This document shows positions 1,205 to 6,303 of a stretch of DNA of 64,000 nucleotides, one piece after another. The position numbers were made by a program, and so were the translations under genes. Source of the DNA: a virus. Lineage: Duplodnaviria > Caudoviricetes. The DNA is taken from positions 64,001-128,000 of IMG/VR virus record IMGVR_UViG_2974666281_000001; one strand, given 5' to 3'. Position 1 is the stretch's first letter. Each line of letters begins with the position of its first letter. The notes beneath the pieces are model-generated. The model searched no databases. It had not been told where the DNA came from and saw only the letters and a program-made list of their open reading frames with translations.

Positions 1205-1740
1205 TTTCTACATCCTTTAATGAAGTCTGAGATGCTTTTCTGATGTTGATATTTCTTTTCTTTATGCTTCACAAAAGGAGCTTTGACGGCGTACCAAAGA
1301 CAGCCATCCAACCAAGTCGTAAAAATAGAAGCTATCAGACAAGTAAAGTTAATTAAAAGACCACCAAAAATAACTTCAAAAAGATTGCCTTTATCAGAAG
1401 CCAAATACAACCAATAGTTAGCTTGGAAAACCATACCTAAAGTGATAAAACCTACTACTCTATCAATTTTATTTTCTTTAGGCTTTTCAGTTCTTGGCTG
1501 ATAGCCGTTCACAATATAACCCATAGTATTTTCCTCATAAATGAACCCGTGTTCTTCAGCCAATTCCATTTCAGCCTGTTTTCTGCGAAGTTTAGCTTCT
1601 ATTTCAGCTTCAGTCGCAGAACGAACACTAACAAAGCCATATTTTTCTTCGAAGTGTCGAGTTTTTTCACAGCTTGTACAATCACAGTCGTCACTATAAC
1701 CAGGGCGACTTGGGTAGATGTCATGATACTGGACAACCAT
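1201..1740 (-). CDS. Membrane protein, e.2/e.3-like, with N-terminal CxCxxC extension; internal start likely at 1524
   Basis: Two TM segments; C-terminal DFIKGCRK; internal SD GAGGAAAATACT-ATG at 1524. Confidence 0.7.
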   Translation of the reverse strand: MVVQYHDIYPSRPGYSDDCDCTSCEKTRHFEEKYGFVSVRSATEAEIEAKLRRKQAEMELAEEHGFIYEENTMGYIVNGYQPRTEKPKENKIDRVVGFITLGMVFQANYWLYLASDKGNLFEVIFGGLLINFTCLIASIFTTWLDGCLWYAVKAPFVKHKEKKYQHQKSISDFIKGCRK

Positions 1741-2672
1741 TATTCACCTCGTACAAAAGGCTTAACTAGGTGTTGGTTCTTTTTAAAGCGGTTAATATAA
1801 TCGTTTACGCCAAGCTTTTTATACATCGCTACAACGGTGTGATAGTTTTCCCAGGCATATTCACGGAACCAACCTGAAGTGATTGATGTACACACTTTTT
1901 CAAGTGCAATCATGAAACTATGTTCGGAAGAAACGTTTTTAAAGTCGTTAGGAATCTGAGAACGTTCCAGAGCAAGTACACATGTTTCTTCGTATACACC
2001 AGCGAGCTTAATTTCTTCAGGTAAAGCAAAGAACTTCTCTTTAGAAGTCATTACTTGGCTACCGTCTTTCATGTAGAAAGTATAAGCAGGGCGACCAGTC
2101 AGAGCTACAGCTTCATGAATAGTATCATGGTCATATGTATAGATGTCGTCTTTAAAGAACTTGTCTTTAGACGTATCTAACACAGGATGAGAATAGCTCA
2201 ATGTCTCTTTTTCGCGTTGTTTCATAATCAACTCAAGACGTGAGTCCAGAGTTGCGCCCTTGTTGCGCAGGAAGCGGATGTGTTGCATTGTTTTACGGAA
2301 GAATAGATTATTCTTCTTGAAACGATGTGACATCTTAATCGCCAGACAGATGGCAGGTGAAGCCCAATAGAACCCGGTAAGATTGTCTTTCTTCAAAGAG
2401 TACTCAGCATAATTCAAAAGCATTGCATTCGAATTAGTATTATATCCTTCAGGCACAAGGTATGCTTCAAAATAAGTCTCGCGACCATTATGCATACATT
2501 TGAAAGCACTCACATCAGGAGTTTTGACTTCAACTTCTAAGCCACCCATACGGGACTTGAACTCATCCCAAGAACATTCATCAGCAATGAAGTCCCAGTC
2601 CGAATTTTTAATGTCACGTGATTCGATTAACCCAGCATTGTGGAGGGCTCGTGAACCAATAACTAACATCAT
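1740..2672 (-). CDS. Putative Pol-beta-superfamily nucleotidyltransferase with C-terminal HDxxH-containing helical domain
   Basis: N-terminal VIGSRAL...SDWDFI (hGS...DxD); YDHDTIHE motif; own early promoter and GAGG SD. Confidence 0.6.
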   Translation of the reverse strand: MMLVIGSRALHNAGLIESRDIKNSDWDFIADECSWDEFKSRMGGLEVEVKTPDVSAFKCMHNGRETYFEAYLVPEGYNTNSNAMLLNYAEYSLKKDNLTGFYWASPAICLAIKMSHRFKKNNLFFRKTMQHIRFLRNKGATLDSRLELIMKQREKETLSYSHPVLDTSKDKFFKDDIYTYDHDTIHEAVALTGRPAYTFYMKDGSQVMTSKEKFFALPEEIKLAGVYEETCVLALERSQIPNDFKNVSSEHSFMIALEKVCTSITSGWFREYAWENYHTVVAMYKKLGVNDYINRFKKNQHLVKPFVRGE

Positions 2673-2699
2673 AATATTTTCCTCATTAGGTTATCCCAT

Positions 2700-2738
2700 T
2701 AGGGTCACTATAACATGACCCTAGGTAGTTGTAAACAC
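2700..2738 (-). promoter_or_regulatory. Early promoter with stem-loop around -10
   Basis: Minus strand GTGTTTACA...TGTTATAGT; TAGGGTCA/TGACCCTA inverted repeat. Confidence 0.8.
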
Positions 2739-2963
2739 TTAGCAGGAAGATGGTTGCCAAATACTTCCATCGGCTTCTACATTGAATTCACGCCCAGCTT
2801 CTTCGCCGTAGCAAGAACTGTTCAGCCAGTCATCGAAACGCATAGAGCCGTCTGACGTATCGAATTCAAAACCAAAATTATCTTCAGAAGCCAGCTTACT
2901 TACTTTGTTGAACAGAAGAGCGAGTTCTTTAGCAGCCTGTTCTAGTTCGTTATGTTGAGACAT
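2739..2963 (-). CDS. Small acidic protein with internal WLNSSC and C-terminal WQPSSC
   Basis: 74 aa from ATG 2963 (SD GAAGGA). Confidence 0.75.
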   Translation of the reverse strand: MSQHNELEQAAKELALLFNKVSKLASEDNFGFEFDTSDGSMRFDDWLNSSCYGEEAGREFNVEADGSIWQPSSC

Positions 2964-3004
2964 TGTATTTCCTTCAGTTACAGTGTTGTTATGTGGGTAA
3001 GCCA

Positions 3005-3298
3005 TTAGCAAGTTTCGCTTGAAGAGACCCAATGGCCACTCAGTGATTTGCCTTCTTCGTCAAATCCATCATTGTAGCTGTAAATGTAGCTAAGCTCATT
3101 TTTTGGAGTACCTTTAGGGTTATATGTACGACCACTACCATAATCGCCCACGCTGAATTCTACACCAAATGCATCAGCAATACTAGTTGCTTCAACATCA
3201 ATAAGACGTTCACCTTCAGAAATCAGAGCTTGAATTGCAGCCGAAGCTTCTTTAGCATTAGTAATTTTGGTATTAGTTACTGGATTTACAAGTTTCAT
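3005..3298 (-). CDS. Small acidic protein ending WVSSSETC
   Basis: 97-aa ORF, coupled to upstream gene by TAATG overlap at 3298. Confidence 0.8.
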   Translation of the reverse strand: MKLVNPVTNTKITNAKEASAAIQALISEGERLIDVEATSIADAFGVEFSVGDYGSGRTYNPKGTPKNELSYIYSYNDGFDEEGKSLSGHWVSSSETC

Positions 3299-3672
3299 TA
3301 TCTACACTCTTTAATAAAATATTCAATTTCAAGACGAGTCTTTTTATTGATTTCGGCTTGTTCGTTGTCTTTTATAGCCTGACGTTTGGCTTTGTTTCTT
3401 CTTCGTGCTGGCATGAAATATACCAATCCAACTAAATGAGGACCAATATAAGTCAAAAGCATGCCTGCAGGCATAGCGCCAAAAACAATAGGAAGAACAG
3501 TTTTATCAGATAGTTGACCACCAAAAAACATAACATCTATAATGACCATGATGAGCGCAAAGCTCATCATCAAACCTAATCCAATCATCATAGAAAGAAT
3601 AAATTTTAAACCACCATCTTGTTCTGTGTTGAATTTAGTTTTCTCAAAGTCCCAAGAGCGATATCTAGCCAT
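3298..3672 (-). CDS. Membrane protein, e.2/e.4-like (2 TM)
   Basis: Two hydrophobic segments; basic cytoplasmic tail ending YFIKECR. Confidence 0.75.
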   Translation of the reverse strand: MARYRSWDFEKTKFNTEQDGGLKFILSMMIGLGLMMSFALIMVIIDVMFFGGQLSDKTVLPIVFGAMPAGMLLTYIGPHLVGLVYFMPARRRNKAKRQAIKDNEQAEINKKTRLEIEYFIKECR

Positions 3673-4486
3673 TGTTCACCTCGGTATGCTTAGTACGACA
3701 CATTTTAACAAACTCGTCGATAGCAAGAATGTTTACACCTTTGTCATGGTCACGAAAACTTTTCATTTTAGCACTTAAGTCGTCTATAAACCATACACGG
3801 TTTTTATCGCTGTAACTTCCACGGGCTGATTCGAAATCAAAGATGTTTACGCACATCGCAAAACGGAAAACTTTGTTGTCCATGCGGGCTTCAAACCATG
3901 CACCATACAGAGATTCAGAACTAAAGCTAGAAGCATCTTCTTTGATGAAATCTCTTGATGAATCGTTATATGCCATCAAAGAGTAATTATACGCTCTAAG
4001 ACCAAGGAATCGAATTCCTTCGGACATACTTGAAATTTCTTTAATAACCTTATAAAAAGTTTTAGTATTTTTTACAAATACAGGTGCAGGTATTTTATTT
4101 TCTTTTGCCCAAGGATGCATACGAACTTTATCTACACTCTGACTAGACAAATGTCCAGAAATATAATCTAAAAATGAATCAGGAGCACCGCATTCAATTA
4201 ACTGCTGCAACTGAAGAGTTTGTCCTGAACTCATGCGAGATGGAATCTTAAATTTATCCGTGCCAGACTCATCGTTCCAAACACCATCACCTTCATAAAA
4301 CATATTATCTCTCTCACTCAAAGGTAATTGATTTAATGTAACAAGTGCTTTCACTACTTCAGGACTTAAGGTGTCCAACTGTTGTTTATCATTCAACATG
4401 CTATCAATAAACCCAACACTTAACATATGGTCTTGGCTTATCTTGTTTGTGAAAAACACACAGTAATTTTTAGTGAAAATATTCAT
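3665..4486 (-). CDS. Conserved hypothetical protein, T4 e.5-like
   Basis: SPE...RMSSGQTLQLQQLIECG resembles recalled T4 e.5; synteny next to e.6. Confidence 0.55.
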   Translation of the reverse strand: MNIFTKNYCVFFTNKISQDHMLSVGFIDSMLNDKQQLDTLSPEVVKALVTLNQLPLSERDNMFYEGDGVWNDESGTDKFKIPSRMSSGQTLQLQQLIECGAPDSFLDYISGHLSSQSVDKVRMHPWAKENKIPAPVFVKNTKTFYKVIKEISSMSEGIRFLGLRAYNYSLMAYNDSSRDFIKEDASSFSSESLYGAWFEARMDNKVFRFAMCVNIFDFESARGSYSDKNRVWFIDDLSAKMKSFRDHDKGVNILAIDEFVKMCRTKHTEVNNG

Positions 4487-5697: not shown

Positions 5698-6303
5698 TTA
5701 TTTACGTGATTTTTCGTAACGAGCAGCGTCAGCAGCCAGAGTACCAGCGTTGCGAAGCTTATTGCTGATTTCTTTATGCAGAGGCTGAGTATAACGCAAA
5801 CTTTCAATTGTTAGATACAGATTGTAAAGGTCTGGAGTTTCAAGGTTGTTCATGTGTTGATTATTACGCAGCTTAGCATATTCACGAACCAGAACGTTAG
5901 TTTCACTTTCAATCTCATTAATCAGTGAAGATAACTGCTTATACTTTTTAACTAATGAAGAAGTATCAAAGTTAAACTTAGGTCCTGCAACTGGTTTAGG
6001 AGCTGGCTTCGATGGGGCAGCCTTCGGAGCTACAACTGCTTTAGCAACAGGAGCAGACTTAGGTGCTGGAGTCGCTTTTGGAGCAGATTTAGCAGTACCA
6101 CCACCAGCTATGATAGCTTTAAAAGCTTTAGATGCTTTATAATAGTCTTTTTGATTATCAGTACTAAACCCATACATGTCTTTCACTGCTTTAAAGAACT
6201 CAGTGGTGGTTTTAGTTCCTTTAATCGAATCATAAGCAGCTTGCCACTTGTCTTTAGTCATACGCTCAGTAGCTTCTGAGATGAATTCTTTGAATTTTAA
6301 CAT
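5698..6303 (-). CDS. Probable internal head protein (capsid-targeting sequence) with Pro/Ala/Lys linker
   Basis: N-terminus MLKFKEFISEA fits the T4 IP capsid-targeting pattern with a gp21 cleavage site; GATAAATA late-like promoter at about 6340-6347. Confidence 0.7.
   Translation of the reverse strand: MLKFKEFISEATERMTKDKWQAAYDSIKGTKTTTEFFKAVKDMYGFSTDNQKDYYKASKAFKAIIAGGGTAKSAPKATPAPKSAPVAKAVVAPKAAPSKPAPKPVAGPKFNFDTSSLVKKYKQLSSLINEIESETNVLVREYAKLRNNQHMNNLETPDLYNLYLTIESLRYTQPLHKEISNKLRNAGTLAADAARYEKSRK

Follow-up and report, generated by a model that had tools for sequence, protein, structure and literature searches.

A predicted nucleotidyltransferase gene of T4-type and other phages is linked to genes for small acidic proteins ending in a Trp-Ser-Cys motif

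The 64-kb stretch of DNA analysed in this work (the window, positions 64,001 to 128,000 of the 171-kb T4-type phage record IMGVR_UViG_2974666281_000001) carries, in a variable early region bounded by lysozyme e/nudE on one side and the tRNA genes on the other, three minus-strand genes that raise a question: do a predicted nucleotidyltransferase (NTase) and two small acidic proteins with similar Cys-ended C-termini form a functional unit, and if they do, what does the enzyme do to its small partners? Read along the minus strand, the first gene (3005..3298) encodes protein B of 97 amino acids (aa), the second (2739..2963) encodes protein A of 74 aa, and the third (1740..2672) encodes the NTase-like protein of 310 aa. 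These open reading frames (ORFs), their motifs and their positions had been described in an earlier interpretation made from the letters of the window (the sequence-only reading), and all of them are present in the sequence as described there. The first 7 kb of the window match Erwinia phage Vettismorki (Tevenvirinae, Winklervirus) at 96.5% identity and Serratia phage LC53 at 95.7%. The sequence-only reading named no T4 equivalent of the block, and this is borne out: in T4, e.2 abuts e.3, and no ORF in T4 64-74 kb fits the pattern of the Cys-ended proteins ("tails" in what follows). At the same place in JK45, another Tequatrovirus, several tail genes are followed by a 318-aa gene, and three of them fit the strict tail pattern.

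The co-occurrence of the NTase with Cys-tailed proteins points to an undescribed two-part system, composed of an enzyme and its protein clients or regulators. The module is widespread, being found in T4-like, phAPEC8-like, Acinetobacter, Myxococcus and jumbo phages. In a literature search no paper was found that names DUF7275, DUF7277, PF23940, PF23942 or phrog_2141, the families to which the enzyme belongs; a search for phage nucleotidyltransferases together with a terminal cysteine gave nothing relevant, and a survey of jumbo phages (PMC7824862) does not mention the family.

Linkage of the enzyme gene and the tail genes

The pairing was examined from both sides. In the enzyme-first set, 80 IMG/VR loci obtained from the NTase alignment and three GenBank loci (83 in total) were translated into six-frame ORFs and searched with the tail pattern W.{1,3}S[ST].{0,3}C-end. 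The pattern was found in 225 of the 5,960 ORFs, every one of them upstream of the NTase gene and on its strand, and nowhere else. One to five tail genes are present in 75 of the 80 IMG/VR loci, and after grouping of the NTases into lineages by single linkage at 60% identity, tail genes accompany all 16 lineages. In one locus (L059) the NTase gene is frameshifted. A family hidden Markov model (HMM) built for the tails gave 190 matches upstream of the NTase gene and four downstream. Within the window itself, proteins A and B are the only matches to the pattern among 392 ORFs of at least 35 aa.

The tail-first set consists of 30 loci collected with the peptide pattern of type 2 tails and six places located through exact matches to five diverse type 1 proteins (the two types are defined in the next section). 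An NTase gene is present in all 36, on the same strand and about 0.1-2.5 kb downstream. Upstream tails also accompany the NTase on the metagenome-assembled contigs of GTDB that carry it (5/5), and tails likewise lie upstream of the NTase in two Stephanstirmvirinae phages, in Acinetobacter phage Berthold and in Myxococcus phage Mx1. The pairing thus spans Straboviridae, Stephanstirmvirinae, Twarogvirinae, Myxococcus phage Mx1 and jumbo phages of 360-395 kb. Orthologues of protein B are 35-45% identical where the NTases are 66-78% identical. The pairing of NTase and tails is near-obligate and far beyond chance.

When all ORFs of the loci were clustered, the only neighbours common to at least three lineages were the tail families, barring an antisense shadow ORF within the NTase gene. 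The same clustering revealed no third partner gene conserved across lineages, and no protease, transporter, dehydratase, cyclase or other maturation gene conserved near the module.

The enzyme and the Cys-ended proteins

The 310-aa protein consists of a Pol-beta-type NTase head (residues ~1-100) and a helical, highly conserved C-terminal domain (residues ~105-300). It begins with M-M-L-V-I-G-S-R-A-L and continues with S-D-W-D-F-I, and it contains a further motif, Y-D-H-D-T-I-H-E. Residues 2-89 match Pfam DUF7277 (PF23942; E 7e-28, 97.5 bits) and residues 108-294 match DUF7275 (PF23940; E 2.5e-79, 266 bits), both far above the curated cut-off of 27, and residues 1-307 match PHROG 2141 (phrog_2141; E 3e-144, 481 bits). 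In an alignment of 25 sequences with identity down to 46%, residues G6, S7, D25, D27 and E69 of the head are invariant, as are K113, H116, R153, H162, D181, H182, D183, H186, E228, E229, C231, E236, R237, K259, C261, S263, T265 to G267 and R270 of the C-terminal domain. The head has the features expected of a Pol-beta enzyme, namely I-G6-S7 followed by D25-W-D27-F, with E69 as the third carboxylate in a predicted strand (64-73), and of 144 family representatives (50% identity clusters) all but seven, 137, retain the G[SG]...DxD signature, the rest being truncated or divergent at the N-terminus. Since G-S, D-x-D and E69 are invariant and the signature is so widely kept, the NTase family is predicted, from its motifs, to be catalytically competent.

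The AlphaFold2 (AF2) model of the NTase has a mean predicted local distance difference test score (pLDDT) of 92 and a predicted template-modelling score of 0.86. In Foldseek the top rank is MenT1 (8an4_A; E 2e-3, probability 1.0), with other NTases next. VIA, which is independent of Foldseek, also gave MenT1 8an4_A as the best match (Z 7.8, root-mean-square deviation 3.6, 153 aa aligned, model range 1-277), followed by ANT(2'') 4xje_A (Z 6.6, 140 aa aligned), MenT3/TglT (Z 6.5), a JHP933-type NTase of H. pylori (Z 6.4), MenT4 (Z 5.7), a giant-virus poly(A) polymerase (Z 5.4) and TM1012 (Z 5.3), with LnuA 4wh5_A further down (Z 4.9). The eight best VIA matches (Z 7.8-5.3) and the best Foldseek matches are NTases throughout. 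Because the moderate Z values combine with invariant catalytic motifs, the assignment of the 310-aa protein as a Pol-beta-type NTase, predicted from fold matches and motifs, is sound.

At the sequence level the enzyme shows no membership of DUF1814. There was no Pfam match of the NTase to PF08843 (DUF1814) at E up to 1 and none to this family in a search of the window's own genome; the Pfam scan of the NTase gave no CCA-adding-enzyme family; PADLOC (AbiE included) and NCBIfam gave no match for the NTase, protein A or protein B at E up to 10; and a search of PDB sequences with the NTase, by single sequence and by profile, returned a chance match to PsaB and no MenT chain. Residues ~160-310 have no structural relative among the listed folds, a part of the protein barely probed by these searches, in which the NTase head fills the match list. 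With the same limit on residues 160-310, no HD chain was among the listed folds, and Pfam gave no HD match, for D-H-D-x-x-H as a possible mark of an HD-domain phosphohydrolase. In the ESM Atlas, residues 100-310 gave weak leads (not above 0.84) to ANT(2'') (PF10706, 0.84) and AbiEii clusters, which are leads and not evidence. Grouped at 90% identity the NTase family amounts to 2,236 clusters, and at 50% to 1,239 representatives; of about 50,700 phage records, 727 contain it. Bacterial genomes are almost devoid of it: 185,579 species genomes gave five matches, all on metagenome-assembled contigs (GTDB).

Protein A is most likely 74 aa long and starts at 2963, judging from a good ribosome-binding site (GAAGGAAA) upstream of this ATG and from its homologues, which begin at that position. 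Longer readings start at ATG 3005, giving the 88-aa form that is annotated in Erwinia phage Vettismorki, and at TTG 3032 (97 aa). At 3003-3007 on the minus strand, the stop codon of protein B overlaps an in-frame ATG of the protein A frame (TAATG). Protein A (pI 4.1) is laid out as an N-terminal helix and two hairpin units, each ended by a copy of the motif, D-W-L-N-S-S-C-Y-G-E internally and W-Q-P-S-S-C at the C-terminus; in 16 orthologues W46, S49 and C51 of the internal copy and W69, S72 and C74 of the terminal copy are invariant. Protein B (pI 4.6) ends in G-H-W-V-S-S-S-E-T-C, and W90, S93, S94 and C97 are invariant in 24 homologues. Relatives of protein A are present in 239 phage records and those of protein B in 389. 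Both proteins align with PHROG 899, a family of unknown function (phrog_899; E 7e-9 for protein A and 1.4e-17 for protein B), but only with the C-terminal 75-85 of its 221 positions, and therefore share a tail module with it and not its whole length. No family for the small proteins was found in Pfam, NCBIfam or PADLOC.

A set of 187 distinct tail proteins from related loci is linked by BLAST into a few subfamilies. Type 1 tails, to which protein B belongs, end in W-x-S-S-S-x-x-C (143 of 187), and type 2 tails, to which protein A belongs, end in W-x-x-S-S-C (39 of 187) and have an invariant internal copy, D-W-x-x-S-[S/D]-C-Y-G-E. Members found by HMM outside the strict pattern end in W-Q-A-S-A-S-S-C, W-N-T-S-A-H-S-C or W-M-E-S-N-C, from which the minimal motif is taken to be W-x-x-S-[S/A]-x(0-3)-C-end. 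Only three positions, the Trp, the W+3 Ser and the C-terminal Cys, are near-invariant throughout the subfamilies, and the second Ser may be Ala. The tail proteins are 52-172 aa long, with a median pI of 4.4 and a median net charge of -8.5, and all subfamilies have a common layout of N-terminal helix, short strands and a Trp-ended strand. A portable tag carried by unrelated protein bodies was considered and rejected, as all subfamilies have this same layout and are joined by BLAST or HMM. In the AF2 model of protein B (pLDDT 85) a helix (15-44) precedes strands 48-50, 57-60 and 89-92; W90 lies inside the last strand, and residues 93-97 form a less confident terminal turn. With W90 in the last strand, the motif is predicted to be a short knob on a folded domain and no long free peptide. 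No convincing structural match to protein B came out of the fold searches (VIA Z 3.4 at best, Foldseek E above 1).

The structure of the tails bears on one alternative, a maturation of the kind known for ribosomally synthesized and post-translationally modified peptides (RiPPs), in which residues at the C-terminus would be altered and then set free as a cofactor or small peptide, for example by Ser activation, elimination and Cys addition as in lanthipeptides. Tandem arrays of possible precursors upstream of a single modifying enzyme would fit such a scheme, as would the two Cys and several His residues that are invariant in the C-terminal domain of the enzyme, and the Ser...Cys-COOH spacing (Cys at +2 or +4 from the invariant Ser) suits the formation of a thioether ring. 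Yet conservation falls on the putative core and not on a leader, what varies is a folded domain, the Trp is predicted to be inside the last beta-strand, and the neighbourhood has no conserved protease, transporter, dehydratase or cyclase family; to our knowledge, no such chemistry has been described for Pol-beta NTases. We regard this alternative as very improbable. The sequence-only reading, which had compared the tails to core peptides and thought of protein-primed nucleotide products, is weakened on these points for two of the same reasons, the position of the Trp in a folded domain of 50-170 aa with only four to seven residues protruding, and the lack of a conserved protease or maturation gene. 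Its other parts fared differently. The Pol-beta-like NTase that it claimed is supported by invariant catalytic residues and by the top matches in both Foldseek and VIA, and the linkage of NTase homologues to small ORFs ending in Ser-Ser-Cys, for which it had named unlinked homologues as the contrary outcome, holds in both search directions.

Possible action of the enzyme on the small proteins

We propose, tentatively and with slightly less than even confidence, that the module has two parts and that the NTase covalently modifies the invariant Ser of small client proteins. A Pol-beta-fold NTase from the structural neighbourhood of MenT, AbiEii and ANT(2'') would act on paralogous small acidic proteins, two in this phage and one to five in others. 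The Trp and the terminal Cys, the latter through its thiol and/or carboxylate, would dock the knob at the enzyme, maybe via the His/Asp/Cys-rich C-terminal domain (DHDxxH, H116, H162, C231, C261), and a nucleoside monophosphate (NMP) would be moved from a nucleoside triphosphate to the hydroxyl of the invariant Ser at W+3. Phosphate might be transferred instead, by analogy with the auto-phosphorylation of MenT, and the Trp and terminal Cys could serve as docking or as second-step elements. The modified small proteins would be the working products, probably early-expressed effectors against host functions, because the acidic bodies vary among paralogues and phages while the knob stays fixed. 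The genes, the predicted fold, the intact catalytic motifs, the tail motif and the near-obligate linkage are documented above, whereas contact between enzyme and knob, the identity of the acceptor, the choice of nucleotide and the role in the biology of the phage are our inference. A further step, which we hold somewhat less firmly, is that the knob carries a modification unknown until now (Ser-O-nucleotidylation or phosphorylation, possibly followed by chemistry at the terminal Cys) and that the module would be a new enzyme-tag system for the activation of early effectors.

The Ser is a plausible acceptor site because its invariant hydroxyl lies within a few residues of where a folded domain ends, and an arrangement of one enzyme with many clients is suggested by a single NTase facing one to five paralogues that have differing bodies (52-172 aa) and the same knob. 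Relatives of the fold place NMP on hydroxyls, MenT on the tRNA 3'-OH and ANT(2'') and LnuA on a hydroxyl of an antibiotic. The NTase head superposes on ANT(2'')-Ia and LnuA, both of which move NMP onto a substrate hydroxyl; these two enzymes differ in using small-molecule substrates, in having no sequence-family tie to the phage enzyme, no 200-aa DUF7275 domain and no partner proteins. CitX and MdcG, enzymes of NTase type, load small acidic carrier proteins with a prosthetic group on a Ser. The NTase classification of PMC2794190 does not name them, and the analogy is not used as evidence here. A precedent for a protein substrate is the minimal Pol-beta NTase MntA of the HEPN-MNT (type VII toxin-antitoxin) systems, which covalently AMPylates its neighbour-encoded partner HepT (PMC7641770) and can add oligo-AMP (PMC7641770, PMC13000451), and which offers a possible working model. 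HepT, however, is a HEPN RNase, whereas no HEPN domain or R-x(4-6)-H motif is found here, and Pfam HEPN and NTP_transf_2/MNT gave no match in the enzyme, the two small proteins and four neighbouring proteins scanned; in the phage module the candidate acceptor would be a Ser in a C-terminal knob, and there are several client paralogues. MenT enzymes can also auto-phosphorylate an active-site Ser or Thr (PMC11375011).

If the enzyme does mark Cys-ended proteins, the module would be a new phage protein-modification system with a short, genetically encodable tag, it would activate fast-evolving early effectors in many large virulent phages, and the marking would give a handle on many "hypothetical" early genes in therapeutic and model phages.

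Several observations weigh against a covalent modification of the tails. The invariance of the terminal Cys is unexplained by simple Ser nucleotidylation, and the internal motif copy of type 2 tails indicates that a free C-terminus is not always needed. MenT1, the closest structural relative, has tRNA as its target, and the small helical protein encoded upstream of it exerts control without being modified by it (PMC11375011). One T4-like genome (G001; 165.5 kb, 97% complete) has an intact NTase of 305 aa (L090 9213-10130) and no tail gene anywhere in the genome, so the enzyme can persist without these clients; this NTase gene directly follows a tRNA array, with one ORF of ~130 aa in the ~1.1 kb upstream of it before the dense tRNA array begins. 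In another genome (G002) the two tail genes are on the opposite strand, at a distance of 5-6 kb. Finally, a distant DUF7275 branch has no Cys-tailed neighbours (Streptomyces phage Limpid, Gordonia phage Yvonnetastic and Vibrio phage phi-ST2, the last with a DUF7275 protein that lacks the NTase head). In this branch the enzyme gene adjoins a different family of small proteins of ~100-120 aa (L145 4633-4971, L146 4579-4941 and L147 3357-3653), which are related to one another in pairwise BLAST (6e-10 and 9e-5) and have the common end ...F-V-E-V-x-P-x-x-x-T-I-T-x-Y.

Some of these points are easier to accommodate if the NTase acts on RNA, for instance on tRNA 3' ends in the manner of MenT, and reprogrammes or stops host translation, while the small proteins bind it non-covalently through the knob. 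The small proteins would then be inhibitors or timers like MenA1, or interchangeable specificity adaptors. MenT1 is the best fold match and MenT3 and MenT4 are listed too; the motifs G-[ST] and DxD are common to MenT/AbiEii and the phage enzyme; and in MenAT1 (the toxin MenT1 and the 68-aa MenA1) a small partner gene encoding an N-terminal helix lies directly upstream, as it does here. MenA1 is a 7.4-kDa helical protein whose N-terminal helix alone controls MenT1 (PMC11375011), and the phage small proteins likewise begin with a long helix and are encoded upstream of the NTase gene on the same strand. The persistence of the NTase without tails in G001 would be easier to understand if its true substrate were something else, and the distant branch has swapped to another small partner. 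On the other side, one to five paralogues per enzyme would be odd for an antitoxin, and it is the Ser/Cys knob that is conserved and not the helix. The partners end in W-x-x-S-S-...-Cys, have no MenA or AbiEi match and belong to no Pfam, NCBIfam or PADLOC family, the model of protein B has no convincing fold match, and the enzyme lacks a match to PF08843 or to PADLOC AbiE even at permissive E-values. The phage enzyme further differs from MenT/AbiEii in an extra, strongly conserved helical elaboration with DHDxxH and two invariant Cys. The module resides on virulent phages, to which a toxin-antitoxin pair is no obvious asset, and G001 argues that the NTase without tails is not lethal to the phage. 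We hold control or targeting of an RNA-directed enzyme by the small proteins to be the main rival to the modification of tails by the enzyme, and rather less likely than it. If the small proteins do control a MenT-like RNA-modifying enzyme, this toxin family would for the first time be seen on phages, where it would be put to offensive use.

Genomic setting of the module

The 66-nt gap between the genes of protein A and the NTase contains an early-promoter-like site, in which a sigma-70-like TTTACA and TATAGT are spaced by 17 nt, with an upstream TG (10 of 12 consensus matches); a 9-bp stem-loop, overlapping the -10 box, is interleaved with this site (2700..2735, minus strand). From the consensus match this element is like a cassette boundary of the PeSL type; in RNA folding the 91-nt region around the stem-loop has a z-score of only -1.45. 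PeSL cassettes, with their layout of promoter and stem-loop between genes, mediate gene shuffling in the variable regions of T4-type phages (Arbiol et al. 2010, PMC2839356), and the nudE-to-tRNA variable region of the window resembles the hyperplastic regions with ORFan cassettes described there. The likeness is one of genomic context only: ordinary PeSL ORFans are shuffled, whereas the genes of this module stay together across unrelated phage groups. Because the NTase and tail genes have remained together despite PeSL shuffling, we infer selection on their co-inheritance.

The cassette structure is also an argument for an absence of any direct interplay, in which the NTase and the tails would be separate early accessory functions, co-inherited through a common host pathway or a mobile cassette, and the knob would be the small proteins' own functional site, for example for metal or thiol chemistry or for mimicry of a host C-terminus. 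In T4-likes the NTase and tail genes sit on distinct cassettes of the PeSL type, each provided with a predicted promoter of its own; in G001 the NTase occurs although tails are absent, and in G002 the parts are unlinked by 5-6 kb. We think this improbable in view of the adjacency, strand and order kept across phage groups that have no other common neighbour at the module, and of the NTase found at every one of the tail-first loci; PeSL shuffling should have parted cassettes that were functionally independent.

The neighbouring tRNA genes suggest yet another role, in which phage tRNAs would have their 3' ends repaired or completed by the NTase, with the small proteins as bystanders. The block lies between nudE and tRNA genes in the window and in other T4-likes, the NTase gene of G001 directly follows a tRNA array, and the fold is related to the tRNA-modifying MenT and, more weakly, to CCA-adding enzymes. 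Among 28 diverse loci outside the T4-type synteny, however, a tRNA gene occurs within 4-6 kb in three, whereas tail genes occur in all 28, and the enzyme has no Pfam match to CCA-adding enzymes. The proximity of the tRNA array is therefore best taken as lineage-specific synteny. Such tRNA maintenance seems to us highly unlikely, and the repair of tRNA ends for the nearby array, which the sequence-only reading had offered as its second choice, is not supported by this distribution. RNA 3' ends as such are a possible substrate, given the predicted MenT-like fold.

Elsewhere the module keeps varied company, with many accessory and counter-defence genes around it in phAPEC8-like phages and in one metagenomic phage. 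In the phAPEC8-like phages (L002 1330-2067 and 8715-9530; L003 1855-2598 and 8515-9330) it stands among genes for a Ser/Thr phosphatase and a SIR2-family deacetylase, and in the metagenomic phage (L136 11139-12071) a gene of the Gad2 family, an anti-Gabija NTase, lies 4.7 kb downstream.

Within the window the module is flanked by four early proteins, all encoded on the minus strand (875-1204, 1201-1740, 3298-3672 and 3665-4486), which are otherwise unlike each other but have a common type of terminal peptide, (D/E)-F-(I/V)-(K/R)-x-(C/I)-R. Three of them end in ...ALDFIRGIRS, ...SDFIKGCRK and ...EYFIKECR, and in the remaining one, ...DEFVKMCRTKH, further residues follow the peptide; membrane segments are predicted in three of the four. 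Farther along, a 201-aa protein (5698-6303, minus strand) starts with M-L-K-F-K-E-F-I-S-E-A and has an Ala/Pro/Lys-rich low-complexity middle, and its start recalls what we take to be the capsid-targeting sequence of T4 internal proteins.

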